Source: an uncultured bacterium (GTDB taxonomy: Bacteria > Bacteroidota > Ignavibacteria > Kapaibacteriales > UBA2268). Taken from it: a stretch of 64,000 nucleotides of DNA. This document shows, in pieces, positions 1 through 59,104 of the stretch. Position 1 is the stretch's first letter. Each line of letters starts with the position of its first letter. The notes under the pieces are model-generated. The model was not told the DNA's origin, did no database searches, and saw only the letters and a program-made list of their open reading frames with translations. The stretch spans positions 4,151,820 to 4,215,819 of the forward strand of contig OW818676.1 in NCBI GenBank assembly GCA_942493235.1. The letters are read 5' to 3'. Position numbers and translations under genes: made by a program.

Positions 1-1
1 T

Positions 2-127
2 AGCGTTTTTGGAATTGAAGCTATTAGAATCGAAACTGATGGTAAAGGACAGACTGAACCAATTGAGGATAATTCAACAGCTCAAGGCAAAGCTTCTAAC
101 CGCAGAGTAGAATTTATCAAGTTGTAA
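2..127 (+). CDS. 3' end of OmpA/MotB-family C-terminal domain protein (partial, start outside window)
   Basis: Reading frame translates ...SVFGIEAIRIETDGKGQTEPIEDNSTAQGKASNRRVEFIKL*, which ends in the NRRVEF motif typical of OmpA C-terminal peptidoglycan-binding domains; stop TAA at 125-127. Confidence 0.55.
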   Translation, partial: SVFGIEAIRIETDGKGQTEPIEDNSTAQGKASNRRVEFIKL

Positions 128-242: not shown

Positions 243-686
243 TCACTTAGCTCTTACATACCAATGAGCTTGCCCGTCAACGCAGTCATCATCGAGAATC
301 AATGTGTCCGCCTTAAACTCAACTGTACCTCTGATTCCATAACCTTCTCTGACTTTATTATTAATTAATAGAAACATCATAGAATCATTTACAATATAGC
401 TGAATGCTTTTTTATATGAATAATTTAAGGTGTCAATAGTGCGATGTGTACTGTAAATTCTGTCTGAAATGACTGTCGAATCAAAAAATGTATAATATAA
501 ATTATACCCTTCGCTACTCGGTGTCCCTATATAAGCAGCGTAAATTCCTCCGGTAGTTTTGACCCATCTCCATTCACCGATTAGATCCTTACCGGTTTTT
601 TCTGAAACAGAGCCAGTACTGTCGCTACAAGAATAAAAGCATATCCCTAAAATCAAAAAAATAAAAAATGTAAAATATGTTTTCAT
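243..686 (-). CDS. Small exported lipoprotein, paralog 1 of 3 (tandem family)
   Basis: Signal peptide plus Cys (ICFYSCSDST); conserved motifs LIGEWRWVKTTGGI and DCVDGQAHWYVR shared with ORFs 910-1353 and 1450-1860. Confidence 0.6.
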   Translation of the reverse strand: MKTYFTFFIFLILGICFYSCSDSTGSVSEKTGKDLIGEWRWVKTTGGIYAAYIGTPSSEGYNLYYTFFDSTVISDRIYSTHRTIDTLNYSYKKAFSYIVNDSMMFLLINNKVREGYGIRGTVEFKADTLILDDDCVDGQAHWYVRAK

Positions 687-909
687 AACTCTCCTATTTA
701 GCTAATTAAAAATCCAATTATTATATAAAACGTATTAAAATAACGATAGTTACAAAATAAACATATAGCTAACAATATAAGTTCGTTTCAAAAACCATTG
801 ATTTATGTTTTTATAAAATTCCAATCATTCGCAATGCCTATATCCCAACACTGAAGCAGGGATTGAATAAAAAATGAATCAAAATACTGTACTTATGCAA
901 AAGTCTTCT

Positions 910-1353
910 TTATCTTACTCTTACATACCAATGAGCTTGCCCATCAACGCAGTCTTCACCAAGAATCAATGTATCCACCTTAAACTCGACTACCGAACGT
1001 AATTTATAGTCAGCTCCCGGGTCAAACGGAAATCGGTACTCTATCCAAAACATATTAACAGAATCTTTACTTAAATAGCTAAGGTCTTTCCTATAAATAT
1101 ATTTAGAAGTATCGGTAATTACTCCGTTCTTCTTTGATATCAGCAGAGTGTCTATGAAGATATAATTCAAATTATATCCAGCTTTTTCGGGTGTTAATAA
1201 ATAATTACCGTCGATTCCTCCGGTAGTTTTAACCCATCTCCACTCACCGATAAGACTTTCACTGTAATTGTCTTTTGACGATGTACTGTCGCTACAAGAA
1301 TATAAGCATATCCCTGCTATCAGTATTATACAAAATGTAAAATATTTTTTCAT
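910..1353 (-). CDS. Small exported lipoprotein, paralog 2 of 3
   Basis: Same N-terminal signal/lipobox and N- and C-terminal motifs as 243-686; central region diverged. Confidence 0.6.
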   Translation of the reverse strand: MKKYFTFCIILIAGICLYSCSDSTSSKDNYSESLIGEWRWVKTTGGIDGNYLLTPEKAGYNLNYIFIDTLLISKKNGVITDTSKYIYRKDLSYLSKDSVNMFWIEYRFPFDPGADYKLRSVVEFKVDTLILGEDCVDGQAHWYVRVR

Positions 1354-1449
1354 AACTCTCCCTTATGACTATACTAAAACAATTATAAATGTCTTTGATG
1401 TTTATATAAAACTACGTATAATGGTGCATATTAATTATTTCGAATTACA

Positions 1450-1860
1450 TCAGTTACGAACATAAAAATGAGTCTGGCCGTCAACGTTATCTTCATGTAA
1501 AATCACAGTATCTTTGATGAAAGTTACAATAGTCGGTATTCCATAATGAGGTGTTTCGCGGAATTTATAACAGATTAACAACAAATTAGTAGAATCTTTT
1601 GTATAAGTATAGTTTAGTGTATCGGTAGCAATATCATCCTTTTTAATGATAAGAAGCGAATCACTAAATATATAATACTCATTATGCCCCACACTGCTTG
1701 GAGTGATTACGGAGCCTGCAATTCCTCCGGTAGTTTTAAGCCATCTCCACTCACCGATTAGACTTTCACTGTAATTATCATTTGACGATGTACTGTCGCT
1801 ACAAGAATAAAAGCATATCCCTGCTATCAGTATAATACAAAATGTAAAATATTTTTTCAT
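1450..1860 (-). CDS. Small exported lipoprotein, paralog 3 of 3
   Basis: Same family; its upstream non-coding region (1861-2045) is ~85% identical by eye to that upstream of paralog 1 (700-870). Confidence 0.6.
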   Translation of the reverse strand: MKKYFTFCIILIAGICFYSCSDSTSSNDNYSESLIGEWRWLKTTGGIAGSVITPSSVGHNEYYIFSDSLLIIKKDDIATDTLNYTYTKDSTNLLLICYKFRETPHYGIPTIVTFIKDTVILHEDNVDGQTHFYVRN

Positions 1861-2206
1861 AACTCTCCCTTATAGCTAATAATAAAACTAATTACCATAT
1901 AAAACGTTTTAAAATAATGATAGTTACAAAGTGAACATATAGCAAACAGTGATAGTTCGTTTCATAAACAATTGATTTATGTTTTATTAAATATCCAATT
2001 ATTGGCAATGCCTATGTCCCAGCTCTGAAGAGCCTGTGTAAATATTATTCTGCGGCAAAATTCTTACGATTTCTATATGCAAAAGAAGTCCCTTGAAAAG
2101 CTAATTACGATAAATCACAATATTTTCCATCAATTAATAATATTTACTATTGAAATTTTAAATTTAATTCTTATATTTGATAGATTGATAAAAGGGACAA
2201 ACTCGT

Positions 2207-5200
2207 ATGAGAATTTTATTAGTAGAAGACAACAAGATTTTAGCAAGTGTAACGCGTGAATATTTAAAATCTGCGGGATATGAAGTATTTTTAGCTGCGG
2301 ACTCTGTTGCATGCTTAAAACTTCTCAATGATGATGAATTTGACCTTATAGTTTTAGAAGTTGTCTTGCCGGACAGATCCGGAATAGATTTATGTAAAGA
2401 AATCAAATCTAAAGATAGTTTTCAAGACATACCTATTATATTTTTATCCTCTCTTACTAATAAAGATGCCTTAGTCGATGGATTAAATGCCGGGGGCAAA
2501 GACTTCATTACAAAGCCATTTAATAAAGAAGAGTTGCTGGCGAGAGTAAAAGTCAACATAGACCTAAAGTTGTCTAATGATTTAATAAAGAAGCAGAATG
2601 AATTGCTACGCAGGGAAATAGAATCAAGAAAGCAGGCAGAGCAAAGCCTAAAAATTTCCGAATCTGTATATCAGGCAGTTGTTGAAGACCAAATAGAAAT
2701 GATATGCAGAATTAAACCTGATGGAACTATAATATTTGTTAATAACGCATTCTGTAATTATTTCGAGTTCTCCAAGCAGGATATAATTAATAATAACCTA
2801 TTTGATATTTTGGTCGATGACGACAGAAAAATCAGATATAAAAATGTATTGCAATTGGGAAATTCAGAGACTCTTAATCATGAGGATTATTTCTATGATA
2901 AAGAAGGCAATATAAAATGGTACAACTGGAATTTAAGAGCTATACGTGATACTTCGGGTATGCTAAAAGAAATCCAAGGCGTAGGTGCCGATATTACCGA
3001 AAAGAAAAAAATCATCGAAGAGCTTAACGAGCTTAGCCTTTTCAATTATAGTATAATAGATAATGCGGGAGAAGGTATAGCGGTACTTGATAGAAATTTC
3101 AAATTTCAAACTTGGAATAAAGCCATGGAAATCATGAGCGAATTCCGTGCTGATGAAGTAATTGGAATTGACTGCCGAATCCTATTCCCTAATATAATAG
3201 AAAAATTCGGCAAAGATATTGATATTGCTTTTACCGGACAACAGGTTAAAACTACGGTTTATCAATTAACATTAACAAAATCTCAAGATAACTTGTGGGT
3301 TAGCGGAAATTTTGTACCGCATATAAATAAATATGGAGATATAATCGGCTTAATCGCGGTGTTTAGCAATCATACCGAAAAAGTTATTAAAGAAAATCAG
3401 CTTAAAGAAAGTCAAATCAGATTGGCAACTTTGATTGACTCTCTACCTTTTGATTTTTGGGCATTAGATAATGATTGGAATTATATATTACAAAACAAAT
3501 CCTGCATTGATAATTGGAAAGACGTAAAAGGTAGGAATTTTCACGAACTTGATGATTACGATGGATTAAAAGATATTTGGTATGCTAATAATCTAAAAGC
3601 TTTCTCCGGTATATCTGTTGAAGAGCATTATACTTTAAATAACGCAGGTAATGATTTACACAAGAAATCAGTTATTTCTCCGGTGATAATAGATGAAGAA
3701 ATTAAAGGTATTATCGGAACAGAAATCGATATAACCGAGATAATTAATTATCAAAATGCCCTTAAAGAATCCGAAAGTAAATATAGGCTTCTTTTTGATA
3801 ATATGCTAGATGCTTTTACTATTAATGAAATTATTTATAACAGCGAAGGTAAACCAATCGATTATATGGTTACCGAGTATAATAAATCATATCTGAAGCT
3901 GTCCGGATTTAGCGAGGAGCAAGTAAAATCGCTCAGCTCAAGTGAAAGGTCTAAAGAGCATTTTCATGAATTTTTTGATAAAATAGAATTTTCGTACCAT
4001 TCAGGGAAATCACAGAAATTTGAGTTTTACTCTGAATTGTACTGCAAGTATTTATCATTAAGTATTTATTTTCACTCTGATAATAAATTTGCTCTAATAT
4101 TTGATGATATTAGTGAAAGAAAAATCGCCGAAGTTAAGCTTAAAGAAAGCGAAGAACAGTTCAGGCAGCTGACTGAAAATATTGATGAAGTAATTTGGTT
4201 AAGAAATAAAGAATCAATACTCTATATCAGCAGCTCCTCGAAAAAATTATTTAATATAGACAGTAATGAACTAATTAGCAATACGAACCTATTTTATGAC
4301 TGCATTCATCATGAATACCTTGAGTTAGTAAAAAGTAAACTTTACGGTAAGGAATATTTAGAAGAAGGCAAGTTGAATATTGAATTCAAAGTTGTTATTG
4401 ATAACAAAGAAAAATGGTTCTGGTGCCGCTCATTCCCTATATTCGATGAAAATTCAAATTTAATTAAAATAGCCGGTATAGTAGAAGATATTACAGATAT
4501 TAAAGCAAGTGAAGAAATAATCAGAAAAGCTAATCTGGTAATAGAAAAAAGTAACACTGTAATAATTATTTGGGAAGACTTGCTGAATCTTAAACCGCAG
4601 TATATCTCGGAAAGTATTCGTCATTACGGTTATAATGCCAAAGACTTTATTGAAGGCACTTTAGATTTCGAATCAATTATTTATAAAGAAGATATTGAGA
4701 AAGTCAGAAATACAATTACGGAAAACCGACTTAATAGCAAAACGCATTATTCGATAGACTGTAGGCACCTTACTTTTAATAAAGAAATCAAATGGATGGA
4801 AATCAGAATCACTGATAAACAAACTTCCGGTACTACTTATTATAGCGAATCAATTTCAATTGACATCAGTGATAGAAAGAAAGCCGAAGAGAAGCTCTAT
4901 GACTCTGAAAACCGTTGGCAATTTGCTGTCGAAAGTTCCGGAGACGGGCTCTGGGAATGGGATGTCCACTCGGGTGAGTTCCTTATTAGTAATAATCTTC
5001 ATAGTATTATGGAGATGAATATTTATGAAAATATTTTTTCAATAAATGAATGGGAAACAAAAATTCATCCCGATGATTTAAGTGAATTTGCGACAAGTAT
5101 CGAGTATCATTTCAAAGGAGATTACCCACAAATCTACCTTGAGCACCGACTTAAATGTTCGACCGGCGTTTATAAATGGGTTCTGGACAGGGCAAAGATT

Positions 5201-8200
5201 TTAACTAAAGATTTAAATGGCGACCCGTTGAAAGTAATCGGCACTATTACTGATATTTCAAAAAGAAAAAACATAGAGATTAATCTTTTTGATACTTCGG
5301 AACGCTTAAAATTGGCAAAAAATGCCGCAAATATGGGTATTTTTGACTTAGATTGTAAAAATAATATTTTAATTTGGGATGAAGAGCTTTTTGAGATTTT
5401 CGGTGTTAAATCGTCGGATTATAAAAATGCAAGAGAAGCATTTGATACGTTAATCTATTCCGATGATGTTAAAATGATAGATGAAGCTACATCGTTACCT
5501 AATTTAACATCAAATAAAATCGAATTGGAATTTGGATATAGAAAAGGAAATAATCAGCACTGCATAATGAAGTCCATTTCTGACGTAATTTTTGATGAAT
5601 TTGGTGAACCATCGAGAATTATCGGTGTTAATTATGATATTACCGAATCTAAGAAAAGTGAAAAAGAAATTGTAGAGGTTCGTTCGCTTTTAGAAGCAAC
5701 TTTTGAACAGAATCCTGCTCCTATGGTTTTGGTTGAATATCCGAGCATGTTTGTAAGAATAGCAAATTCCGCATTTATTGATTTTTATAACATCGATAAA
5801 GAGATTATTCCTAATAAAATGTCAATCATAGAGCTTAGATCTTATTGGCAGGAATTTTTGCCAAACGGAGTAATGCTCTCTCCGTATCAGACTCCACTTA
5901 CCCAATCCCTTAAAGGAAATCGGATAAAAAATGAAGAATACTATATTAAATGTAAAGACGGATCTGTAAAATGGGAATTGGTCAATTCTGCCCCTATTTT
6001 CAATTCAGCAGGTGAGCTGATAGCAGCATTTGCGGTAGTTAATGATATTACTAATATTAAATCTGCTCAAGAAAAAATCAAACAAAGTGAAGATAAATTC
6101 AGGTTTATTACTGAAAATTTGATTGATGTAATTTGGCAAACCGATATAGATTTAAATTACACATATTTAAGTCCTTCTATTTCTAATTATTCAAATCAAT
6201 CTCCGAGCGATATGATTGGCAAAAGCATTTTAGAAAATATTTTACCCAAATATCATCAATTAATTATAGAAAAGCATAAAGAAAGTATTGTTAATATTGA
6301 AAATAAGAAACAGCCGGAATCAGATACCATTGAATGCGAAAGCTATTTACCAGATGAGACTTCAATCTGGAGTGAAATCACATATACCGCGTTAATTGAT
6401 TCCAACTTTGAGCTTATCGGATACCAAGGTATTACTCGCGATATAACAAAAAGGAAACTTACCGAATTAGCTGTGATTGAATCCGAAAAAAGATTTAGAA
6501 CCTTAATTACTTCGTCACCCGACTCTATTTTTATAACCGATTTGTCTGGACTAATTAAGTTTAGTTCCTTGGCAGGCTCAAATTTATTCGGTTATGACAC
6601 TAAGAGTTTTGCCGAGAAATCAATTACTAATTTACTTGATAAAACGGATGTTAATCATTTCAACTATTCAATTAATAAACTGATTGAAGGCAAATATCCT
6701 CAACCCGAGACATTTGTAGCACACAAGGCAGACGGCTCGAAAATATTTATTGAAATCAATTTTAGTTTATTGAAAAATTCAGCAGAGCTACCGGAAGAAA
6801 TTATATTCATTATCAGAGATATTACCGAGCGAAAAAAAATCGAGTTCCAATTGACAGAAGCTAAAAACAAAGCTGAAGAAGCCAACAGAACCAAATCTGA
6901 GTTTATTGCAAATATCAGCCATGAAATTCGCACACCACTTAATGCAATTATCGGATATGCCGATATTTTAAAAGCTAATATTGTCGAATATGAGCAAAAA
7001 GAATATATAAAAGGAATAGTAAGAGGCAGTAAAAACCTATTGGCAATTATTAATGATATTCTTGACCTTTCAAAAATTGATTCCGGGCATATTGAAATTA
7101 ATTATTCTCCCGTAAATATTAATTATATTATTAATGACATTAGGCAGATGTTTTCTCTGAAAAGTAAAGAGAAAAACCTCGAATTCATTTTTGAGACTAA
7201 TCCTGAATTACCTAAAATAATTCTTACCGATGAAGTTCGATTGAGGCAGATATTGATTAATTTAGTCGGCAATGCATTTAAATTTACTAATAAAGGATTT
7301 GTCAAGCTACAGGTCGATTTTGTCGCTTTTGAAGGCAGAATAGATTTGGTCTTTCATATTATTGACTCGGGAATTGGCATTCCACCAAGCCAGCAAAAAA
7401 TTATTTTTGAACCTTTTAGGCAGCAGCAGGGTCAGAGTACACGTAAATTCGCCGGCACTGGCTTAGGGCTAACTATCTCGGACAAATTAGCAAAATCTAT
7501 GAATGGGAATATTTTATTAGTAAGTTCTCAAGGCAAAGGAGCAAAATTTACTCTTGAACTTAAAAATGTAAAAATTCCTGAAAATTACGAATACAATAGA
7601 ATTACAGAATCTAATATTGATATATTCGATAATAAAAGGATAGTACTAATTTCATCAGATATTATTTTAAGCACTATCATTTCGGATTATTTTTATACTA
7701 CTAACTGTGCATTCGAGATTTTCACAGATTCTGAAAAAGCTAAGCTTGAAGCTAACAGAAATTTAGCTGATGCTATTATTATTGATTTTGATAATTTAAG
7801 CCAAATAGAAATAGATAATTTAGCTCACTTAGCTAAGACAGGTTTTTTAAAAGAGCAATGCCTATTGGCTATTAGTAAAGATAACAAGATTCCTGTCAAT
7901 TCGGATATTAATTTTAATGAAGTTTTTATCAAACCGGTCGATATTGGTTTGTTGTCTGATTCGTTAACTAATTATTTGAAATTTATCAATATAAATGTCG
8001 AATCGATGGATGACAAAATCGAGCAATTAATCGATTTAATTATTCTAAAAACAGATTTTAAAAAATTGGGACAGCTCTCTCCAAATATTTCATCGGAGTG
8101 GAGGAAAATCAAAAAACTAATGGATATTGATGAAATAAATCGATTTGCTGAAAGTCTTATACTGACATCAGAAAGCATGGCTAACACATATTTAAAAATA

Positions 8201-8320
8201 TATGCTGAAGTATTAAGGCATCAAGTTTCTGAATTCCAATTAGATACAATGAATAATACATTTAATTCGTTCTATAAGATAGTAGATTATATAAGTAATT
8301 CAGGATTTCACAATGAATAA
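2207..8320 (+). CDS. Giant hybrid sensor histidine kinase: N-terminal receiver, many PAS/PAC domains, HisKA, HATPase_c, C-terminal pseudo-receiver/unknown region
   Basis: N-terminus MRILLVEDN...DLIVLEVVLPDRSG is a receiver; repeated PAS-like blocks across ~1500 aa; H-box SEFIANISHEIRTPLNAIIGYADIL; G-boxes GTGLGLTIS; 2037 codons open. Confidence 0.85.
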   Translation: MRILLVEDNKILASVTREYLKSAGYEVFLAADSVACLKLLNDDEFDLIVLEVVLPDRSGIDLCKEIKSKDSFQDIPIIFLSSLTNKDALVDGLNAGGKDFITKPFNKEELLARVKVNIDLKLSNDLIKKQNELLRREIESRKQAEQSLKISESVYQAVVEDQIEMICRIKPDGTIIFVNNAFCNYFEFSKQDIINNNLFDILVDDDRKIRYKNVLQLGNSETLNHEDYFYDKEGNIKWYNWNLRAIRDTSGMLKEIQGVGADITEKKKIIEELNELSLFNYSIIDNAGEGIAVLDRNFKFQTWNKAMEIMSEFRADEVIGIDCRILFPNIIEKFGKDIDIAFTGQQVKTTVYQLTLTKSQDNLWVSGNFVPHINKYGDIIGLIAVFSNHTEKVIKENQLKESQIRLATLIDSLPFDFWALDNDWNYILQNKSCIDNWKDVKGRNFHELDDYDGLKDIWYANNLKAFSGISVEEHYTLNNAGNDLHKKSVISPVIIDEEIKGIIGTEIDITEIINYQNALKESESKYRLLFDNMLDAFTINEIIYNSEGKPIDYMVTEYNKSYLKLSGFSEEQVKSLSSSERSKEHFHEFFDKIEFSYHSGKSQKFEFYSELYCKYLSLSIYFHSDNKFALIFDDISERKIAEVKLKESEEQFRQLTENIDEVIWLRNKESILYISSSSKKLFNIDSNELISNTNLFYDCIHHEYLELVKSKLYGKEYLEEGKLNIEFKVVIDNKEKWFWCRSFPIFDENSNLIKIAGIVEDITDIKASEEIIRKANLVIEKSNTVIIIWEDLLNLKPQYISESIRHYGYNAKDFIEGTLDFESIIYKEDIEKVRNTITENRLNSKTHYSIDCRHLTFNKEIKWMEIRITDKQTSGTTYYSESISIDISDRKKAEEKLYDSENRWQFAVESSGDGLWEWDVHSGEFLISNNLHSIMEMNIYENIFSINEWETKIHPDDLSEFATSIEYHFKGDYPQIYLEHRLKCSTGVYKWVLDRAKILTKDLNGDPLKVIGTITDISKRKNIEINLFDTSERLKLAKNAANMGIFDLDCKNNILIWDEELFEIFGVKSSDYKNAREAFDTLIYSDDVKMIDEATSLPNLTSNKIELEFGYRKGNNQHCIMKSISDVIFDEFGEPSRIIGVNYDITESKKSEKEIVEVRSLLEATFEQNPAPMVLVEYPSMFVRIANSAFIDFYNIDKEIIPNKMSIIELRSYWQEFLPNGVMLSPYQTPLTQSLKGNRIKNEEYYIKCKDGSVKWELVNSAPIFNSAGELIAAFAVVNDITNIKSAQEKIKQSEDKFRFITENLIDVIWQTDIDLNYTYLSPSISNYSNQSPSDMIGKSILENILPKYHQLIIEKHKESIVNIENKKQPESDTIECESYLPDETSIWSEITYTALIDSNFELIGYQGITRDITKRKLTELAVIESEKRFRTLITSSPDSIFITDLSGLIKFSSLAGSNLFGYDTKSFAEKSITNLLDKTDVNHFNYSINKLIEGKYPQPETFVAHKADGSKIFIEINFSLLKNSAELPEEIIFIIRDITERKKIEFQLTEAKNKAEEANRTKSEFIANISHEIRTPLNAIIGYADILKANIVEYEQKEYIKGIVRGSKNLLAIINDILDLSKIDSGHIEINYSPVNINYIINDIRQMFSLKSKEKNLEFIFETNPELPKIILTDEVRLRQILINLVGNAFKFTNKGFVKLQVDFVAFEGRIDLVFHIIDSGIGIPPSQQKIIFEPFRQQQGQSTRKFAGTGLGLTISDKLAKSMNGNILLVSSQGKGAKFTLELKNVKIPENYEYNRITESNIDIFDNKRIVLISSDIILSTIISDYFYTTNCAFEIFTDSEKAKLEANRNLADAIIIDFDNLSQIEIDNLAHLAKTGFLKEQCLLAISKDNKIPVNSDINFNEVFIKPVDIGLLSDSLTNYLKFININVESMDDKIEQLIDLIILKTDFKKLGQLSPNISSEWRKIKKLMDIDEINRFAESLILTSESMANTYLKIYAEVLRHQVSEFQLDTMNNTFNSFYKIVDYISNSGFHNE

Positions 8321-9437
8321 AATAAGTTTTGAAGGATTAGAAAACTCAAAATTGTTGATTGTTGATGATATTATAGATAACATTCGAATAATCGCAAGTT
8401 TACTTAAATCAAAAGGCATTCTGGTAACTCCGGCTACAAGTGGGGAGCAGGCTTTAGGCCTGTCTGTTGCTAAAAAACCCGATCTAATCCTATTAGATGT
8501 GCAAATGCCCGAAATGGACGGTTTTGAAGTTTGTAAGAAGCTAAAGGAAAATCCATTAACTAAAAATATCCCTGTTATATTTTTAACAGCAAGAACAGAA
8601 ACCGAAGATATCATGAAGGGATTTAATCTCGGAGCTATTGATTACATAACTAAACCAATCAATTCCGATGAAGTAATGGCAAGAATTAAAACTCATCTTG
8701 AGTTAAAAAAATCAAAAGATATAATCAACGAGCAAAATATTAATTTAAGTGAGCTTAATGCAACTAAAGATAAATTCTTTTCTATAATTGCTCATGATTT
8801 GAAAAATCCTATTTCAAATTTCAGAGATTTAACTAAAGTCTTAGTCGAAAACTTCGGTTCCTTGTCAGATTCTGATAAGGTGGAATACTTGACTATGATG
8901 AATAAATCATCAGAAAGGCTGTTTTCTCTTTTAGAAAATTTGCTTGAATGGTCTCGTTCTCAGAGAGGCTTGATTCAGTTCAGCCCCATTCAGTTAGATC
9001 TTAACTATATTATTGATAATATTATTTCGTTGATGACTCCTCTGGCTCAAAAAAAGGAGATAAGCTTAGTTAAAAATATTAACAGCAATATTAATATTGT
9101 TGCAGATGTTAATATGCTCAATACTGTAATTCGTAATATAGTTTCAAATTCAATTAAATTTACAGAGACTAATGGCAATATTACTGTAGGAGCTAAAAAT
9201 TTCGATAATTATATAGAAGTATTTATAGAGGATAGCGGAATAGGCATCAGTCCCGAAAATATCAGCAAATTGTTTCATATTGATTCTAATATTTCTACTT
9301 TAGGTACTTCAAACGAAAAAGGTACAGGCATAGGGCTAATTCTCTGTAAAGAATTTATCGAAAAGCATAACGGAAAAATCTGGGTAGAAAGTGAAGTGGG
9401 AAAAGGAACTAAATTTACTTTTGTTATTCCTAAATAA
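8313..9437 (+). CDS. Receiver-histidine kinase hybrid (REC-HisKA-HATPase)
   Basis: KLLIVDDI...DLILLDVQMPEMDGFEV receiver; H-box FFSIIAHDLKNPISNF; G2 box GTGIGLILCKEF; start overlaps upstream gene by 8 nt (ATGAATAA). Confidence 0.85.
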   Translation: MNKISFEGLENSKLLIVDDIIDNIRIIASLLKSKGILVTPATSGEQALGLSVAKKPDLILLDVQMPEMDGFEVCKKLKENPLTKNIPVIFLTARTETEDIMKGFNLGAIDYITKPINSDEVMARIKTHLELKKSKDIINEQNINLSELNATKDKFFSIIAHDLKNPISNFRDLTKVLVENFGSLSDSDKVEYLTMMNKSSERLFSLLENLLEWSRSQRGLIQFSPIQLDLNYIIDNIISLMTPLAQKKEISLVKNINSNINIVADVNMLNTVIRNIVSNSIKFTETNGNITVGAKNFDNYIEVFIEDSGIGISPENISKLFHIDSNISTLGTSNEKGTGIGLILCKEFIEKHNGKIWVESEVGKGTKFTFVIPK

Positions 9438-9676
9438 ATTCCAAATAACAATATAGAGGTAATTATATAATTTTAAAAATAGTCATTTTGTGGTGCCTTT
9501 ACAGTTTCGTGTAATTGTAAAGGTGATGATATATTTTTAATATAGAGCTTTTGCAACTTACCTTGATTTTAAATACTTTCTTGATTTCAAAACATTTCTT
9601 GACTTTATAATAAATATTTTGTATTTTGTTGTGATTTTTTAAATACGATATATTCTTCTTGTAAAGGTAGGAAATT

Positions 9677-12600
9677 ATGATAAATAAAAAACAACATAAA
9701 TTGGCTTTCGGTACAAAGTTGTCTTTAATTATTTTGTTATTGGTTTTACTAATAAGTTTGCCGATATTATTTTTTGTTTACAATTATATTGACATTAAAA
9801 TAAAAGATAAGACTCAAAATATATTAGTTGATAATTCCAAACAAATTGCAGAAAAAATCAACAGTCAGTTAAATGAAATTCTCTATCAAATCAATCCTAT
9901 TGCCGAATCATTAGAAAATTTAATAAGTACTAATGATATTAATAAGGTAAAGGATAAAATCAATAATACTCTCGATCAGAATAAACATATTTCAGGTATA
10001 TGGATAATGCTTAATCCGGAAGAATTCGTAAGCAATGAAAATATTTCCGACTTCTTATACGCAAGCGTACTCGGAAATATCACTAAAGTATTTGTAAATA
10101 ATTCAAATAATAAGCACATTTTTAAACCACTGAATAATATAAAAGAAAATCAATTTTTAGATATATTCAAAGAATTGAAATATTCGAGACGAAACACAAT
10201 TTCTGCCCCTTCTATAATTTCAGATTATGGAACTCTATATAGCACAATTCAATTATCAATTCCGGTAACAGTCTCCGGTCGATTTATAGGAGTGGTAGGT
10301 ATCCATCTAAGCTCTCAATTCATCGGTAATATACTGAAATACTCCTTTTTAAACGATGATGCAATATCAGCAATTTTCTCAAATAGCGGAGATGTTATTT
10401 TCATAAATAACGACCATTATAATAAAGAAGCAAATATCAATAATTTTAATATTTATAAATCCGAAACTATGCTTGAGATTGAAAAAGCAATTAAAAGCAC
10501 ATATTCGTATTCTATTAATCAGCATTCTGCAATGACTAATTCTAAAGCATTTACTACGGTAATCCCAATACATCTAAAAAAATATAATACTAATTGGGCT
10601 TTAGTCAATGTCTATCCGGACAAATCTTTTTTCACGGATTTAAATAATTTTACTAATTTTTATATATTAATAGTAATTTTAGGGTTACTATTAATGATTG
10701 CATTAATCCATGCTTATTTAAAATTCCAATTAAAGCCATTGAGAAATTATTTAAAATTCTCTAATAATATTTCAAATGGATTTTATCTTCAAGAAATCAA
10801 TGAAAAATATCTTTCTAAATCCGATGAAATCGGTAATCTATTCCAGTCGTTAAAAACTATCCAGGAGAGCTTGAGAAATAAAGACACAGTAGCAATGAAG
10901 AAATACGAAGAGCAAAATAAATATATTACCGGTACTAAATTATTGCTCGAGCAAATGCGTGGCAATCAGGACATTCAAGTATTAGCTAAAAATGTACTGT
11001 CATTTCTTGCAAAATTTATTGATGCTCAAGTAGGCACATTTTATTTATATAACGACGAAACTAAAGTGCTTGAACTTTCGGCATCATTTTCTTTTACTAA
11101 GAGAAAAGGCGACCATTACAAAATCAATTTAGGCGAAGGAGTATTAGGTCAGGCAGCTATTGAAAAACAAATTGTTTTTTTAACCGAAATACCACCGGAT
11201 TATATTAGCATAAGCTCTGCTCTTGGCGATGCAGTACCGCAGAATATAATAATAGCTCCTTTTGTTTATGAAGATAAGCTAATCGGGGTAATAGAATTAG
11301 CAACGTATCTACAATTTGATGATGCTCAAATCGAGTTTATTAAAAACGGACTAGAAAATATTGCTATTGCATTTAATTCTGCCGGAGTCAATAAAAAAGT
11401 CAATTTGCTCTATCAAGAAGCTCAAAATCAAGCTGAAAAACTACAGACTCAGCAAGAAGAGCTTATTGCTACTAATGAAGAACTTGAAGCTCAGACAGTA
11501 GCTTTAAGAAATTCAGAGCATAAACTAATCGAACAACAGGAAGAATTACAAGCTATCAATGAAGAGCTTGAAGAGAAAACAAGTTTTCTTGAAAAGCAAA
11601 AAGGAGAAATAATTCAAAAGAATGAAGAATTACTCGTTGCTCAATATGAAATTGCTCAAAAAGCTAAAGAAATCGAATTGACAAGCCAGTATAAATCCGA
11701 ATTCCTTGCAAATATGTCGCATGAATTAAGAACCCCGCTAAATAGCATATTGATTCTTGCTACTAATTTATTTGAGAATTCAGCAGGAAACTTAGTAGAT
11801 GACCAAGTAGAATCTTCGAAAATCATATACCAGTGTGGAATTGATTTGCTTAATCTGATAAATGATATTTTAGATTTGTCAAAAATTGAAGCTGGCAAGA
11901 TGACTATGAATTTCCAAGCTACCGAAATAATACATATTGCCGACAGTATTAATAAAAACTTCAAAAAATTAGTTGAAAATAAAGGCTTAAAGCTGATTGT
12001 AGATATAGCTGCCGATTTGCCAAAAGAAATAAACACTGACTCCCAACGGCTTGAGCAGGTAATTAAGAATTTTGTTTCAAATGCAGTTAAATTTACTTCT
12101 AAGGGAGAAATCAGTGTATTAATCAGGCATCCCGATGAGTCTGTTAAACTACGTATTCCTGTAAATAATCACAAGCAAGCATTAGAAATTTGCATTAAAG
12201 ATACCGGCATAGGTATTCCCAAAAATAAACAAAGAGAAATTTTTGAAGCTTTCCACCAGTTAGAAAGTCACTTATCAAGGAATTATAATGGTACAGGGCT
12301 TGGCCTGTCTATAGCAAAAGAAATTACTCACTTGCTTAATGGCGTAATTAATCTCAAAAGCATAGAAGGAGAAGGCTCCGAATTCTCGATTATAATTCCA
12401 ATTAATACGCCTATTGCCGAATCTGATACTAATAATCTCGGAATCAATGAATCAAGCAGAATTATTCTGGAAGCTAACAATGAACTATCGACAGAATCTG
12501 TTTTACACAATCTTTCAGATATGCATGTAGAAGATTATAAACAAGAAATTAGCGAATTGTTTACTGCTGAAATAAATATGGCTAATATCGAAGATGACAG

Positions 12601-13792
12601 AAATTCTTTAAAAGAAGGCGATAAGTTAATTTTAGTAGTTGAAGACGATTTGATTTTTGCTAAAATTCTTTATGAACAGGTAACCCACAAATCTTTCAAA
12701 TGTATATATACTGCCACCGGAGAAGAAGCTTTGGCTTTAGCTGATAAGTTTAAGCCCGATGCTATTATATTAGATATTAAACTACCGGGTATTAACGGCT
12801 GGGAAGTTTTGCAATTTCTAAAGGAAAATCCCAACACTCGCCATATACCTGTTCACATGATGAGTGGCGAAGGCAATACAATTGATGCCAAGCGTAACGG
12901 TGCAGTCGGATTTATTAGTAAACCTACCACAAAGGATAAATTAGATAAAGCCCTGACTAATTTAGAAAATCTAATGAAAAAGAAAATCAAAGATTTACTC
13001 GTTGTAGAAGATGACAGCAAACTCCGGAAAAGTATTATCGGGCTATTGAAAGCAGACGACGTTACTACATACGAAGCTGATTCTGGAGCTCAAGCTCTGC
13101 AGTTTTTAAAATATTATAATATTGATTGCATGGTGCTGGACTTAACACTACCGGACATGACCGGCTTTGACTTACTAAACATAATACAAAGAGAATCAGA
13201 TATTAATATTCCTCCCATAATTGTTTACACCGGTAAAGATTTATCTAAAGAAGAAGAAACAAAGATACTGAAATTTGCAGAATCAATTATTATCAAAGGT
13301 GTTAAGTCAGAGGAAAGGCTAATTGATGAAACTGCATTATTTTTACATAGAGTAGTTGATAAAATTCAAGTACATTCAAAAGATATAATACTAAATCTTC
13401 ACGATAAAGATTCTGTTTTTAAAGATAAAAATGTACTTTTAGTCGATGACGATATTAGAAATGCTTTTGCAGTCTCAAAAGTATTAAAAGAAAAAGGAAT
13501 AAATATTACAGTTGCCGAAAATGGCGAGAAAGCAATTGAAGCATTAAAATCCGATACTTCTTTTAATATGGTACTGATGGACATAATGATGCCGATAATG
13601 GATGGATACACTGCAATTACAAAAATTCGTACCGAATTGAATATGAAAAAATTGCCAATAATTGCTCTTACTGCTAAAGCAATGAAAGAAGATAGAGATA
13701 AGTGTATCAATGCCGGTGCAAACGACTATTTATCCAAACCTATAGATTTAAATAAACTGTATTCTTTGTTAAGGGTCTGGTTATATAAATAA
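9677..13792 (+). CDS. Membrane hybrid sensor kinase: TM, periplasmic sensor domain, TM, HAMP, GAF, coiled coil, HisKA, HATPase, three tandem receiver domains
   Basis: Two hydrophobic segments flank a ~300 aa domain; H-box SEFLANMSHELRTPLNSI; GTGLGLSIAKE; three blocks with LxVEDD / VLLVDDD ... D-x-x-LP receiver signatures. Confidence 0.85.
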   Translation: MINKKQHKLAFGTKLSLIILLLVLLISLPILFFVYNYIDIKIKDKTQNILVDNSKQIAEKINSQLNEILYQINPIAESLENLISTNDINKVKDKINNTLDQNKHISGIWIMLNPEEFVSNENISDFLYASVLGNITKVFVNNSNNKHIFKPLNNIKENQFLDIFKELKYSRRNTISAPSIISDYGTLYSTIQLSIPVTVSGRFIGVVGIHLSSQFIGNILKYSFLNDDAISAIFSNSGDVIFINNDHYNKEANINNFNIYKSETMLEIEKAIKSTYSYSINQHSAMTNSKAFTTVIPIHLKKYNTNWALVNVYPDKSFFTDLNNFTNFYILIVILGLLLMIALIHAYLKFQLKPLRNYLKFSNNISNGFYLQEINEKYLSKSDEIGNLFQSLKTIQESLRNKDTVAMKKYEEQNKYITGTKLLLEQMRGNQDIQVLAKNVLSFLAKFIDAQVGTFYLYNDETKVLELSASFSFTKRKGDHYKINLGEGVLGQAAIEKQIVFLTEIPPDYISISSALGDAVPQNIIIAPFVYEDKLIGVIELATYLQFDDAQIEFIKNGLENIAIAFNSAGVNKKVNLLYQEAQNQAEKLQTQQEELIATNEELEAQTVALRNSEHKLIEQQEELQAINEELEEKTSFLEKQKGEIIQKNEELLVAQYEIAQKAKEIELTSQYKSEFLANMSHELRTPLNSILILATNLFENSAGNLVDDQVESSKIIYQCGIDLLNLINDILDLSKIEAGKMTMNFQATEIIHIADSINKNFKKLVENKGLKLIVDIAADLPKEINTDSQRLEQVIKNFVSNAVKFTSKGEISVLIRHPDESVKLRIPVNNHKQALEICIKDTGIGIPKNKQREIFEAFHQLESHLSRNYNGTGLGLSIAKEITHLLNGVINLKSIEGEGSEFSIIIPINTPIAESDTNNLGINESSRIILEANNELSTESVLHNLSDMHVEDYKQEISELFTAEINMANIEDDRNSLKEGDKLILVVEDDLIFAKILYEQVTHKSFKCIYTATGEEALALADKFKPDAIILDIKLPGINGWEVLQFLKENPNTRHIPVHMMSGEGNTIDAKRNGAVGFISKPTTKDKLDKALTNLENLMKKKIKDLLVVEDDSKLRKSIIGLLKADDVTTYEADSGAQALQFLKYYNIDCMVLDLTLPDMTGFDLLNIIQRESDINIPPIIVYTGKDLSKEEETKILKFAESIIIKGVKSEERLIDETALFLHRVVDKIQVHSKDIILNLHDKDSVFKDKNVLLVDDDIRNAFAVSKVLKEKGINITVAENGEKAIEALKSDTSFNMVLMDIMMPIMDGYTAITKIRTELNMKKLPIIALTAKAMKEDRDKCINAGANDYLSKPIDLNKLYSLLRVWLYK

Positions 13793-18817: not shown

Positions 18818-19885
18818 ATGAGAACTATCAAAACATTCTGCAATAGCAGACACTTATTATTTAATTATTGTCTATTTAATTATCAACATTGTATATTAAG
18901 ACTTATATTATTAACTGCAATTAGTTTTTTACTACAGACTAATTATTCGATTTCTCAAAATGAAACCGATACATTAGTTGATAGTCGCGACGGCAAGAGC
19001 TATAAAACAGTAAAAATCGGTAAGCAGTGGTGGATGGCAGAAAATTTGAATTACGGGAAAAAGGTAAATGGCAATCCAATAGGCATCTTTCAAACAAATA
19101 ATAGTGAAGTCGAGAAGTACTGCTATTCGGATAACGAAGCTAATTGCACAATTTACGGTGGCTTATATGATTGGAATGAAGCTATGAATTACACATCACT
19201 TGAAAATGGGCATACAAATGAAGATATTCAGGGCATCTGCCCCTGCCAGTGGCATTTACCGAGTGATGAAGAGTGGTTTGAATTAGAAAAATATTTGGGC
19301 ATGCCTGACGAATCATTAAATCAATATGACTCCGGCAGAGACGGCACTACCCAAGCAGACAGCATAAAATCAGCGGGAACTACTTATTGGAAAGAGGGGA
19401 ATAATGGGATTAACAGTGCAGGATTTAATGCCATAGCAGCCGGTAATAGGCACAACTATAATTTTATGTTCGGTAATCTTGGGGTTTCTACCGGATTTTG
19501 GACTAGCTCTAAAGATCAAACAAATTATATATTTAGGGGATTGCAATATAATTATAGTCAAATAGCAAGGCACTCAGGTACTAATGATGTTGAAAGTATG
19601 GTTACTTCATATTCGGTAAGATGTGTGAAAAATAAAAGTACTGCCTCTGTGAATACTTTAGATGAATCTAATATAAGGCTATATCCAAACCCAAGTACAG
19701 GTATTGTTAATCTAATAAATTTGCCAAATAACACGGAAATAGTGTTATACAATTCATTAGGTGAAGCATTACAAACTCTAACTAATCAGATAGACTCAAG
19801 TTTTAAAATTGACATTTCAGACTTGCCGCCCGGTGTATATTACTTAAAATTCGCTAAGATACTAAAGATGTTTGTTAAGATATAA
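18818..19885 (+). CDS. Secreted protein with Fibrobacter succinogenes major paralogous domain and T9SS C-terminal sorting domain
   Basis: DSRDGKSYKTVKIGKQWWMAENLNY...YGGLYDWNEAM (TIGR02145-like); C-terminus LYPNPSTGIVNL...GVYYLKF resembles Por_Secre_tail. Confidence 0.7.
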   Translation: MRTIKTFCNSRHLLFNYCLFNYQHCILRLILLTAISFLLQTNYSISQNETDTLVDSRDGKSYKTVKIGKQWWMAENLNYGKKVNGNPIGIFQTNNSEVEKYCYSDNEANCTIYGGLYDWNEAMNYTSLENGHTNEDIQGICPCQWHLPSDEEWFELEKYLGMPDESLNQYDSGRDGTTQADSIKSAGTTYWKEGNNGINSAGFNAIAAGNRHNYNFMFGNLGVSTGFWTSSKDQTNYIFRGLQYNYSQIARHSGTNDVESMVTSYSVRCVKNKSTASVNTLDESNIRLYPNPSTGIVNLINLPNNTEIVLYNSLGEALQTLTNQIDSSFKIDISDLPPGVYYLKFAKILKMFVKI

Positions 19886-31391: not shown

Positions 31392-34300
31392 TTATTTTAT
31401 AACAGTTACGCTTTTATTTTCAATTTTGTTATCAGAGTATTTAATTCTTAATATATAAGTACCGCTAACAAAGTCTTTGGCATCAAGTACATAATCAGAA
31501 ATAATATCGCCGTTTAAATTCTTAATGCAAACGCTATTACCTGATAAATCAATTAATTCTAAACTTTTCGGTGTAGAGCTATTTAAGAATTTGACATATA
31601 TCATATCAGAGCTTGGATTAGGAGAGATAATCGAATTACTAATCACTCTATCGATTATTCCCAAACCATCTTCGGCTATAGCCTTTATATTTAATAATAT
31701 AGGAGTAATTTCTCCGCTATTGTAAATTTTTAAAACCGCCGATTTATCGCCTTTAGTTTTTGGGTAGTAGTTCAATTCAATTTCGGTAGTTTCTCCTACA
31801 CTAATTACTTTATCAAATTCATTATTTAAAACAAATTCATTCGTTGCTGTATTAGCTCCTGGAGAAATTTCAGAACCGCTAACAGAAATATCGACTATAC
31901 CCATATTCTTAATTTTAATATAAGCAGTATTTGTATCATTTACTTTTGCTGTGCCGAAGTCGTGCTCATCTCCGTCTATAAATGCTATTGTGTTTGAAGG
32001 CAGAGCTTCTTTGGCATAAGCGTTTAAAGTAATTATAAGCTCAGGCTCAATAGCATTGCTTCTTATTTTCAAATATGCAGTTTTTTTACCGACTGTTTTC
32101 GGTGAAAATTTAAATCTGAGTAAAATTGTTTCCATTGGTTCTATAGAACTAATATCAGCCGTAACTAAACTGAATTCATTAGCATTAGTATTTTCTCCGG
32201 GTTCGATTATTATCACGTCAATATCTGTGCTGATATTACCAATATTTTTAATTTTAATTGTTTTTGTTTTATTTTTAAATACCTCGGCTGTATCGCATTG
32301 TACTAAGTTACCATCTAAAGAGATTAGCTCACGCGTTCCGTTTAGTATATCGTATTTAAAGTTAAGTCTTCCGAATGTAGTACCGGCATCAAAAACTATT
32401 GCGGTATTAGGATTATATGAGTAAGCAGCTCCGATTTTAATTCCGCTTTTTCGTTTTGTTAAAATAGGTTTCCAGCTTATTCCTTTGTCAGAAGTAACTA
32501 CCACACTACCATTTTTTAATAGCATATAGAAATCAGCTGAATTATATACATTAAAAACAGACAATACATCATAGCCGAGAGTAGTTAAATTAATATTTGT
32601 CGGAGTCCAGTTCGCTCCGCCATCATCTGTAAAAGCAAGAAATGAATTAGCTCCGCTTTGCTTATTAAAGACCGCCATACCATTGAGTGCTGTACTAAAT
32701 ACTATATAATGAATTTCCAAAGCACCGCTAATAGTTGAGGTTGACCAGCTTGCTCCTTTGTTATTAGTATAGACTACTCTGCCCTTTGTAGTTCCAAAAG
32801 CTCCTTTATCTTCATACCAGCAACTTGAAGTATTAATACTTGTTTCTGCGGCTAAAGAGACAATCGGATTGCTGATTGACTCCCAAGTAGTTCCAGCATC
32901 AATGGTACGTACTATTCCCCAAGTACCGTTTTTAGGATCACCAATTACTACCCCGATACTGTTTTCAAAAAAATGTATATCATTAATAAATGTAGTAAAT
33001 GAACTCAGATCTTTTTCTGTCCAAGACTCGCCTGTATTTTCGGTATAATAGACCTTTTTCTCGTAATTACTGCTTGATGCTAAATATGCGGAACTCGCAC
33101 TAAATGCATGTACAGCTGTAATCGGGCTACTTGACACTTCATTATAGAAAATATAATTATTTGCAGTTTGCTTCAAAAAGCCACCGCTATAATTATAACC
33201 ATTACCAAATAAAGGACCATAGCCAACATACCAGCACACATCCTTACTCGGTGCATAAGCATCATAGAATTCTGGCAAATAAGAAGAAGGTAGTTCATAG
33301 TCAATTGTATAAGTATTTTTATTATTTGAAATATTGACCGGTATTGCTATCATCTCATAGTCTAAATAATTATCAGCTTCATAATAAACTACTAATTTCA
33401 TGTAACCAGAAAACCAAGGATTATCTGCTGTCAATGCAATAGTCGGGGTAATAGTCTTATTTGTTAATGAATCAAAATTTTCTAATGTAAAGCTATTGTT
33501 AGTAATCACAAAACCTTTATCCGGTGAAGATATAGTAACAATGCAATTATTAGCAGGGGCAAGATAGTTTTTCAATGTGATTTTGTAAGGTCTCGCTGTA
33601 TTATCTATTAATTCAGATGCTAAACCATCAGTAAACTCAGATTTAACTATACCAATGCCGGGTACTTGTTTGCTTTGGTCATCAGAATTATATGTTACCG
33701 CTTGGTATGCATCAGCTATACCAAAGAATAGCTCGCTACCGTTAGTTTCTTGAATATTTTTATTGGCAGTACTTCTAATCTGATGATAAACTTGCTGAGG
33801 AGACCATTCGGGATGAATTGTCTTAACTAACGCAGCTATTCCGGCAATATAAGGTGAAGAAAATGATGTCCCGTCCGTAGTAGTATATTGATTACTTGCA
33901 TCAGTAGTATAAATTCGAGAACCGGGAGCAAATACCCCTACCGAATAGCCATAATTTGTAAAATCAGACGCTGATTTTGCTGAAGTTACAGAGCCAATAC
34001 TAAAAGCATTGCTAAAGTTAGCAGGATAAAACTTAGTATCATCGGTATTTGAGTAATCATTACCTGATGAAACTATCAGGCAGGCTCCCTTTGATGCAGC
34101 ATAATTAATTACAGCTTCTTCAGAAGCACTATATCCCTGACCGCCCCAAGAACAGTTAATTACCTGTGCCCCAAGTTTAGCAGCATAAGTAATGCCTGCA
34201 TATCCGTTATAAATCCCGGAAACACCGGATATTGATGAACCGCATTTTATAGGGATAATTTTACAGTTAAAACCAATACCCGCAACGCCCATATTGTTGT

Positions 34301-58946: not shown

Positions 58947-59104
58947 TTTTGCTTCAAATATTCTTATGTTAAATTTAAGTTTGCAAAATAAAGAATTCAG
59001 CATTAAAATACTAAAAATAAGTTATTGGAAATAAATATTCTTTATCTGAGACTTTAGCATAATTATGAAAATAAGGTTCTTCATTATTATGAGTGGATAG
59101 TAAA

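Follow-up and report, generated by a model that had tools for sequence, protein, structure and literature searches.

A three-copy tandem array of lipocalin-like lipoprotein genes in an Ignavibacteria genome, probably shaped by barrel topology and gene conversion

We analyzed a tandem array of three small lipoprotein genes, referred to here as copies A, B, and C, near one end of a 64,000-nucleotide stretch of contig OW818676.1 (assembly GCA_942493235.1) from an uncultured bacterium of the Ignavibacteria (Kapaibacteriales, UBA2268). This whole stretch is hereafter called the window. The locus is probably a lineage-specific tandem expansion, in three copies, of an uncharacterized and widespread family of small outer-membrane lipoproteins, shaped by the topology of a beta-barrel and by gene conversion between copies. 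The array is an ordinary gene-family expansion rather than a special diversification system, and it opens no new mechanism. It is a clean illustration of a more general point: conserved ends around a variable middle in a tandem array can stem from barrel topology and local gene conversion, with no diversifying selection needed.

Conserved Ends and the Predicted Fold

The open reading frame (ORF) list contains three neighboring minus-strand genes encoding 147, 147, and 136 amino acids (Table 1), as described in an earlier note on this DNA, and their products align over the full length with pairwise identities of 55–65%. Between copies, the leader with its lipobox (Cys20) is 79–96% identical and the N-terminal block LIGEWRW(V/L)KTTGGI 93–100% identical, in agreement with the near identity that the note had reported for this region. 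The central part, which it had called diverged, indeed is: the ∼80-residue core is 37–46% identical and contains three indels. A shared C-terminal block (DTLIL..) had also been claimed, and it is conserved at 65–81% identity, but copy C is less similar there than the note implied, with DCVDGQAHWYVR in A and B and DNVDGQTHFYVR in the outlier C.

All three copies carry the leader MK(T/K)YFTF..I(L/A)GIC(F/L)YS ending at C20, and the products are predicted bacterial lipoproteins and signal peptidase II substrates. The Cys that ends the hydrophobic leader is kept in at least 90% of 55 family members, which agrees with the initial description of the genes as tandem lipoprotein paralogues. This Cys is usually preceded by Ser in the family, and the −2 residue of the window copies is Tyr, which is atypical for a classical lipobox.

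Structure prediction, one of the checks proposed for the mature domain, indicated that the products of A and C fold. In AlphaFold2 models built from a 12-sequence alignment, copy A had a mean predicted local distance difference test score (pLDDT) of 82.6, with values of 86–95 over most of the mature domain, and the copy C model was all-beta with the same strand order. In both models, the mature domain scored ∼90 and residues 21–28 alone fell below 50. The main strands of copy A (residues 37–46, 61–68, 71–78, 82–96, 101–110, 117–125, 128–133, and 139–145) are predicted to form the eight-stranded antiparallel up-and-down beta-barrel that is typical of calycin or lipocalin-like proteins. Eukaryotic lipocalins formed a long tail among the structural matches, and Foldseek returned no more than marginal matches to fatty-acid-binding proteins. 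Each product would thus consist of a signal peptide up to Cys20, a short and probably flexible tether (residues 21–28), and a compact eight-stranded barrel of ∼110 residues. Our favored reading is that such proteins would serve as lipid-tethered binding modules outside the cytoplasm, with the variable wall and loops giving each paralogue a binding specificity of its own.

The conserved blocks coincide with particular elements of this predicted fold. The N-terminal block corresponds to strand 1 and the following GG turn (GxWxW..GG), and the C-terminal block to strand 7, a hairpin, and strand 8 (DTLxL..D..H.YVR). Because an up-and-down barrel closes by pairing its first strand with its last, the two ends of the sequence would together make up a single contiguous unit of the structure. 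Positions 38 and 40 of strand 1, which are polar and variable, alternate with the invariant G37, W39, and W41, and in strand 8, the variable positions 140, 142, and 144 alternate with H141, Y143, and R145, a pattern that suggests that the conserved residues of both strands face the same, inward side. Strands 1 and 8 would close the barrel, and the sequence ends, as neighbors in space, would be the conserved heart of the fold, while the middle (strands 2–6 and their hairpins) would supply the remaining wall and loops, tolerate substitutions, and hold all indels. In lipocalins, the barrel closes where a GxW motif in strand 1 packs against a conserved basic residue, an Arg, that ends the last strand; G37-x-W39 and R145 of the window family recall this closure as sequence motifs only.

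The distribution of conservation in the wider family follows the same profile. Positions invariant among the paralogues had a family-wide information content of 2.38 bits, vs. 1.19 bits at variable ones (Mann–Whitney p = 1e-6), and paralogue invariance correlated with family information content (r = 0.52, p = 6e-9). The three indels all fall at or beside the hairpins between strands 3–4, 4–5, and 5–6. Given that invariant positions track family conservation and that indels sit at hairpins, conserved ends with a variable middle represent the general profile of this fold family, and not a peculiarity of the array.

A Widespread Family Without a Domain Model

The three proteins had no match in Pfam, even at E ≤ 1, and no meaningful match in PADLOC, and NCBIfam returned nothing except weak matches confined to the leaders of known lipoprotein families. 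Word-indexed protein searches recovered just 5 and 9 proteins, comprising the window's own three, a metagenomic relative (P0004), and a few distant ones. An exhaustive profile search with a hidden Markov model (HMM) against 1.84 billion representatives, on the other hand, retrieved 1051 clusters at E ≤ 1e-3, 111 of them at E ≤ 1e-10, so that the extent of the family was revealed by this search alone. The homologues called for by the earlier note therefore exist in number, while the window itself holds no copies beyond the three. Nearly all matched clusters were 125–165 amino acids long, mostly lipoproteins of 130–150 amino acids, and they derived mainly from Bacteroidota and other bacteria of the Fibrobacterota–Chlorobiota–Bacteroidota (FCB) group. 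This is an uncharacterized, widespread lipocalin-like lipoprotein family, with at least 1000 clusters at 50% identity and no Pfam or NCBIfam model. Its definition should help annotation and makes it a candidate new domain in the lipocalin-like superfamily of the Bacteroidota/FCB group.

The diverse 55-member alignment yielded the consensus ..SC.K....L.G.W.W..S.GG..G...TP...G ... DTL.L.D.C.DC..H.YVR, in which G37, W39, W41, G46, G47, and D137 were invariant, R145 was nearly so, and C20, G50, P56, and L129 were at least 90% conserved. The family has two versions of the strand 7–8 hairpin (copy A residues 133–141), a two-Cys version, D-x-C-x-D-C-x-x-H, and a Cys-free one, D-V-Y-D-G-(F/Y)-x-H. This hairpin contains a single Cys in copies A and B and no Cys in copy C; its His is strongly conserved across the alignment.

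A degenerate DNA pattern of the N-terminal motif, run on species-representative genomes, identified 63 loci, and the family HMM confirmed a member in ∼59 of them. Most hosts were Bacteroidota (Emticicia, Hymenobacter, Spirosoma, Saprospira, Flavobacteriaceae, Bacteroidales, Sphingobacteriales, and Chitinophagales), joined by Ignavibacteria, Balneolales, Chlorobiota, Zixibacteria, Cloacimonadota, and metagenome-assembled genomes of Gemmatimonadota. A single copy per locus was usual in these ∼60 genomes; some carried two, and neighboring pairs with 28–47% identity were present at six loci (L024, L027, L035, L039, L057, and L061). The sole close relative of the window proteins was P0004, at ∼51–58% identity, and a scan of metagenomes for further close relatives gave one distant single-copy locus (L071).

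In five multidomain relatives, one or two copies of the domain are joined to a C-terminal sorting domain of type IX secretion, and in one relative, the domain is fused to NigD_C. These fusions argue for a site of action outside the cytoplasm, either at the outer membrane or further out. In L055 (29–1120) and protein P0014, two tandem domain copies in one polypeptide precede the type IX sorting domain, so that duplication also occurs inside genes of this family.

Old Duplications, Probable Gene Conversion, and the Case for Diversification

Nei–Gojobori estimates for the three sequences gave whole-gene ratios of nonsynonymous to synonymous substitution (dN/dS, ω) of 0.25–0.30 for the three pairs. 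In the core, the proportion of synonymous differences (pS) was 0.76–0.83, which is saturated, and that of nonsynonymous differences (pN) was 0.36–0.41. Saturation of synonymous sites indicates that the duplications are old, and it makes dN/dS of the core not computable. The pairwise comparison proposed as a check on diversification thus gave nothing pointing to ω > 1: there was no sign of it among the paralogues, a set of three sequences in which episodic selection could have escaped notice.

Synonymous codons pointed to a second process. Among codons for the same amino acid in B and C, 37 of 41 were identical in the first 48 codons, vs. 12 of 30 in the core (p = 1.4e-5), and sliding identity between these copies was 93–97% in the 5′ tract vs. 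∼53% in the core. For A and C, the 5′ end had 26 of 31 identical codons vs. 16 of 31 in the core (p = 0.013), and for A and B, the 3′ end had 13 of 16 vs. 17 of 28 in the core, which was not significant (p = 0.2). The segments pair different copies, namely A with C upstream, B with C in the 5′ coding region, and A with B in the 3′ coding region. P0004 is itself a mosaic, nearest to B over nucleotides 60–165 and nearest to A over nucleotides 180–345, while roughly equidistant overall. Given these differing pairings, no single duplication tree fits the array, and segmental gene conversion is the simplest account. The synonymous conservation of the B/C 5′ end likewise points to gene conversion, and not to selection at the protein level, for part of the conservation of the ends. 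We propose that old duplications were followed by homogenization through gene conversion, which would have acted between B and C in their 5′ coding regions, and between A and C in the upstream DNA as well as the 5′ end.

In the conserved ends, variable core, and tandem arrangement, the earlier note had seen the pattern of diversifying surface or immunity lipoprotein families. On such a view, positive selection would act on the core, or recombination with the conserved ends as homology arms would shuffle it, so as to vary a surface-exposed face or to match different toxins. That reading was not supported, and we regard this explanation as unlikely. In its favor, the degree of divergence varies strongly along the gene, the differently paired tracts and the mosaic P0004 attest to recombination between copies, and the type IX sorting-domain fusions indicate an extracellular location. 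However, the conserved blocks are family-wide structural motifs, whole-gene dN/dS is low, and core pN lies well under the saturated pS. The family HMM found only three full genes in the 64 kb and no silent cassettes, no significant inverted repeats surround the promoters, and a DDE transposase lies 57 kb off; in this window, we therefore found neither the silent donor cassettes nor the invertible promoters of a phase-variable system. Nor does the array resemble a set of toxin immunity genes, given that no toxin or secretion-effector gene lies nearby, neither a protease nor an invertible element accompanies the genes here or in the ∼60 other genomes, the neighbors are devoid of toxin domains, and PADLOC gave no meaningful match to a defence or immunity family. 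No neighbor was conserved in the ∼60 genomes, most of which have one copy per locus.

A related proposal is that the array works as a recombination-driven diversification module, with the 5′ block (leader and strand 1) and the 3′ block (strands 7–8) as homology arms and conversion shuffling the cores between them. If so, core shuffling would have left its mark both in the mosaic tracts of the three copies and in the mosaic composition of P0004, and the module would produce mosaic lipoproteins at the surface whose binding specificities are new, such as potempin-like inhibitors or receptors. We consider such a module very doubtful.

Several observations weigh against our account of barrel topology combined with gene conversion in a family of outer-membrane lipoproteins. 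Gene conversion is statistically firm for the B/C 5′ tract alone, the A/B 3′ tract falling short of significance, and part of the conversion signal could come from strong constraints on codon use or translation initiation in signal-peptide regions. The inward orientation of the Trp, His, Tyr, and Arg cluster, the pairing of strands 1 and 8, and whether the barrel has a cavity are judged from residue alternation and topology, not from coordinates. The window proteins matched none of the lipocalin-type Pfam models, and Lipocalin_4 was touched by just 2 of 55 relatives (E = 0.002). The C-terminal helix of kernel lipocalins is also absent, with none predicted after strand 8 in the models of A and C, so that the products have neither of the two marks of a kernel lipocalin, i.e., a match to Pfam Lipocalin, Lipocalin_2, or Lipocalin_4 and this helix. 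Just one acidic residue follows Cys20, and a Bacteroidota-type lipoprotein export signal is not evident; the proteins are probably located at the outer membrane or cell surface, in a surface or a periplasmic orientation. Finally, a binding function is suggested by fold and location only. With these points considered, we still favor old tandem duplication, barrel topology, and gene conversion as the probable explanation of the locus.

Layout of the Array and Putative Promoters

The features of the array and of the wider window are collected in Table 1. The three high-identity tracts listed there were output of a repeat search and are independent of the protein alignment.

Table 1. Features of the lipoprotein array and of other genes in the window.
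Feature	Position	Strand	Description
Copy A	243–686	minus	147-aa lipoprotein gene; signal peptide and lipobox Cys20 at 627–686; mature part predicted as a lipocalin-like beta-barrel
Copy B	910–1353	minus	147-aa paralogue; ORF; family HMM E = 6e-42; amino acid identity 55% to A, 65% to C
Copy C	1450–1860	minus	136-aa paralogue; ORF; family HMM E = 1e-35; AlphaFold2 mean pLDDT 81.3
Region 5′ of copy A	687–909	minus	223-nt intergenic region; homologous to 1861–2076; promoter-like block at 723–757
Region 5′ of copy C	1861–2076	minus	homologous to the region upstream of copy A; promoter-like block at 1897–1931
C–B spacer	1354–1449	minus	96 nt; ribosome-binding region and ACGT..TTTTATAT box kept; rest of upstream unit absent
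B/C tract	1721–1878 vs. 1214–1371	minus	158 nt, 95% identity; 5′ coding regions of B and C plus 18 nt upstream
A/B tract	251–324 vs. 918–991	minus	74 nt, 91% identity; 3′ coding ends of A and B
A/C tract	616–856 vs. 1790–2030	minus	241 nt, 85% identity, ungapped; 71 nt coding plus 170 nt upstream
Terminator-like hairpin followed by T run	144–186	minus	3′ of copy A; sole one predicted in the array
Kinase 1		plus	2037 aa; REC, multiple PAS, and HisKA/HATPase domains
Kinase 2		plus	374 aa; REC-kinase; 8-nt overlap with the 2037-aa kinase
Kinase 3		plus	1371 aa; GAF-kinase with three receiver domains
Fib_succ_major protein	18818–19885		type IX secretion C-terminal sorting domain
S8 subtilase	31392–35174		1260 aa; type IX secretion C-terminal sorting domain
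M1 peptidase	54622–56745		type IX secretion C-terminal sorting domain

Duplication of whole gene-plus-promoter units, as first proposed, fits A and C, which share ∼170–220 nt of upstream DNA, but not B, which has no such unit: in its spacer, upstream similarity is limited to the last ∼20 nt, i.e., the ribosome-binding region, and the short ACGT..TTTTATAT box. The ∼85% identity reported for the regions upstream of A and C applies to the ungapped A/C tract, and across the full 223-nt intergenic region, identity falls to 78%, with a 16-nt indel excluded. The copy C upstream region sits within a 346-nt divergent intergenic region common to the sensor kinase gene that starts at 2207. Copy C itself has a 7-residue deletion in the strand 4–5 hairpin and a C-terminal motif without Cys.

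Upstream of copy A is a 35-nt block, TTTTGTAACTATCGTTATTTTAATACGTTTTATAT (723–757), which recurs with one mismatch upstream of copy C (1897–1931) and is recognizable upstream of P0004, which belongs to another organism. It has just these two sites in the 64 kb, vs. 0 in 100 shuffles, and the similarities between the upstream regions of the copies are far above chance. The TAnnTTTG box is the Bacteroidota promoter consensus. Judged by its sequence, the block can be read as a promoter of this type, with TTTG, an 18-nt spacer, and TACGTTTT resembling that box. Given that no terminator was predicted in the C–B spacer, B may be co-transcribed with C, and an arrangement with promoters before C and A, and B read through from C, is plausible. 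Rfam gave no RNA family in the whole window at gathering thresholds, nor in positions 1–2400 at E ≤ 1, so the conserved upstream DNA corresponds to no known riboswitch or leader.

The window has a GC content of 32%, which stays uniform at ∼32% from the flanks through the array, so that no break in composition marks the locus. A 65-aa ORF with a TTG start (1268–1465, plus strand) lies antisense over the start of copy B and the C–B spacer; the family HMM scan gave it no support, and it is most likely spurious.

Genomic Context

Flanking the array are a convergent OmpA-like gene, represented by its 3′ end, and the divergent gene for the 2037-aa REC-PAS-histidine kinase. Positions 1–124 (plus strand) hold the 3′ end of the former, whose product ends in GKGQTEPIEDNSTAQGKASNRRVEFIKL (..NRRVEFIKL), as is typical of the C-terminal peptidoglycan-binding domain of the OmpA family, and the hairpin at 144–186 is a possible bidirectional terminator common to this gene and copy A. 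On the other side, three consecutive large sensor kinases, divergent from the array, occupy 2207–13792 (plus strand). Kinases of this sort were not beside family members in other genomes. Neighbor clustering in the ∼60 genomes likewise identified no conserved partner gene, whether protease, toxin, or other; neighbors were kept within genera only and were housekeeping genes (aldolase, gamma-glutamyltranspeptidase, fatty-acid oxidation, TetR, and ABC transporter).

The proteins of the window with type IX sorting domains (Table 1) indicate that the organism, an FCB-group bacterium, has type IX cargo, including peptidases. These peptidases are at least 29 kb from the array (30–54 kb), and none adjoins it.

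P0004 is encoded on a 3007-bp contig from the Joint Genome Institute (sample 3300075153), where a RadA/Sms-like gene and one for DUF3795 adjoin the family gene. The RadA-like gene of the window (57597–59003) is 55 kb from the array, beside a DDE transposase (59475–61154), a difference in position that suggests rearrangement between the two lineages. Elsewhere in the window, a 1397-aa ORF (41148–45341, minus strand) has the PP-loop and C-terminal domains of TilS (tRNA-lysidine synthetase) confined to ∼450 residues at its C-terminal end; Pfam matched nothing in the preceding ∼950 residues, which make an unusually long N-terminal extension for TilS.

Comparison With Known Systems

Among the functions known for this fold in the phylum are protease inhibition, as PotE of Tannerella forsythia blocks the peptidase forsilysin (PMC9890683), and glycan binding (bioRxiv 10.1101/2023.09.07.556657). 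Neither function is supported by the context of the array.

As potempin-like inhibitors, the paralogues would each block a secreted type IX peptidase with loops at one end of the barrel. Like the window copies, potempin E, PotB1, and PotB2 (PDB 8ehc, 8ehd) are paralogues with unusually conserved signal peptides, 65% identical among the potempins, and strongly diverged mature regions (PMC9890683), and the window does encode type IX cargo peptidases of the S8 and M1 families. Potempin genes, however, are directly upstream of, and co-transcribed with, their peptidase, whereas the array adjoins the OmpA-like gene and sensor kinases and has no co-transcribed peptidase beside it, and no peptidase recurs beside family members elsewhere. 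The similarity to PotE was insignificant (E = 0.088, PDB profile search). Potempins of the PotE/PotB type are marked by nanomolar inhibition of a peptidase through a reactive-centre loop between strands 7 and 8, and the equivalent hairpin of the window family carries the conserved D-x-C-x-D-G-x-x-H, the most conserved motif here across several phyla. This conservation is an ill fit to target-specific inhibitory loops, and we consider protease inhibition of this kind very unlikely. We also rejected a sequence link to PotE, given that the hhalign alignment covered just the leader, lipobox, and L.G.W start.

Alternatively, the barrels might act like surface glycan-binding proteins or carbohydrate-binding modules, with one polysaccharide per paralogue. 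A laminarin-binding module of a GH16 enzyme from marine Bacteroidota has 4QRL and 4L3R as top structural matches (bioRxiv 10.1101/2023.09.07.556657), one relative of the window proteins weakly matches the C-terminal lipocalin-like domain of GH43, and the family has conserved Trp, Tyr, His, and Arg. On the other hand, no polysaccharide-utilization genes (SusC/SusD or glycoside hydrolases) lie beside the array or beside family members elsewhere, and residue alternation suggests that the conserved aromatics would face the barrel interior, not an exposed platform. We consider this explanation very unlikely as well.

Among other small barrels, a META-domain (PF03724) lipoprotein directly follows the family gene in four Emticicia loci (L015, L018, L030, and L034) and scores weakly with the family HMM (E about 5e-4), which hints at a distant relationship or at a functional pairing of two small-barrel lipoproteins. 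This weak score is the likeness to META/HslJ (PDB 2kts), and the window proteins differ in having no Pfam META match; a sequence link to the Emticicia META protein was rejected, its hhalign alignment being limited to the leader, lipobox, and L.G.W start. The Escherichia coli lipocalin Blc (PDB 1qwd) shares G-x-W in the first strand and a conserved Arg ending the last one. Compared with Blc and kernel lipocalins, the window proteins are ∼50 residues smaller, have no helix after strand 8, and do not match Pfam Lipocalin.

The likewise uncharacterized small Bacteroides “lipocalin-like” proteins solved by structural genomics (PDB 4qrl, BACUNI_01346; 2mhd; 4gzv; and 3hty), which are of the Lipocalin_4 type in the calycin clan, share with the window family an eight-stranded barrel of ∼100 residues, a lipoprotein leader after which strand 1 opens with L-x-G-x-W, and a distribution in Bacteroidota and the FCB group. 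The window family differs from them in having signatures of its own, GxWxW..SxGGxxG..TP at the N-terminal end and DTLxLxD.C.D(C/G)..H.YVR at the C-terminal end.

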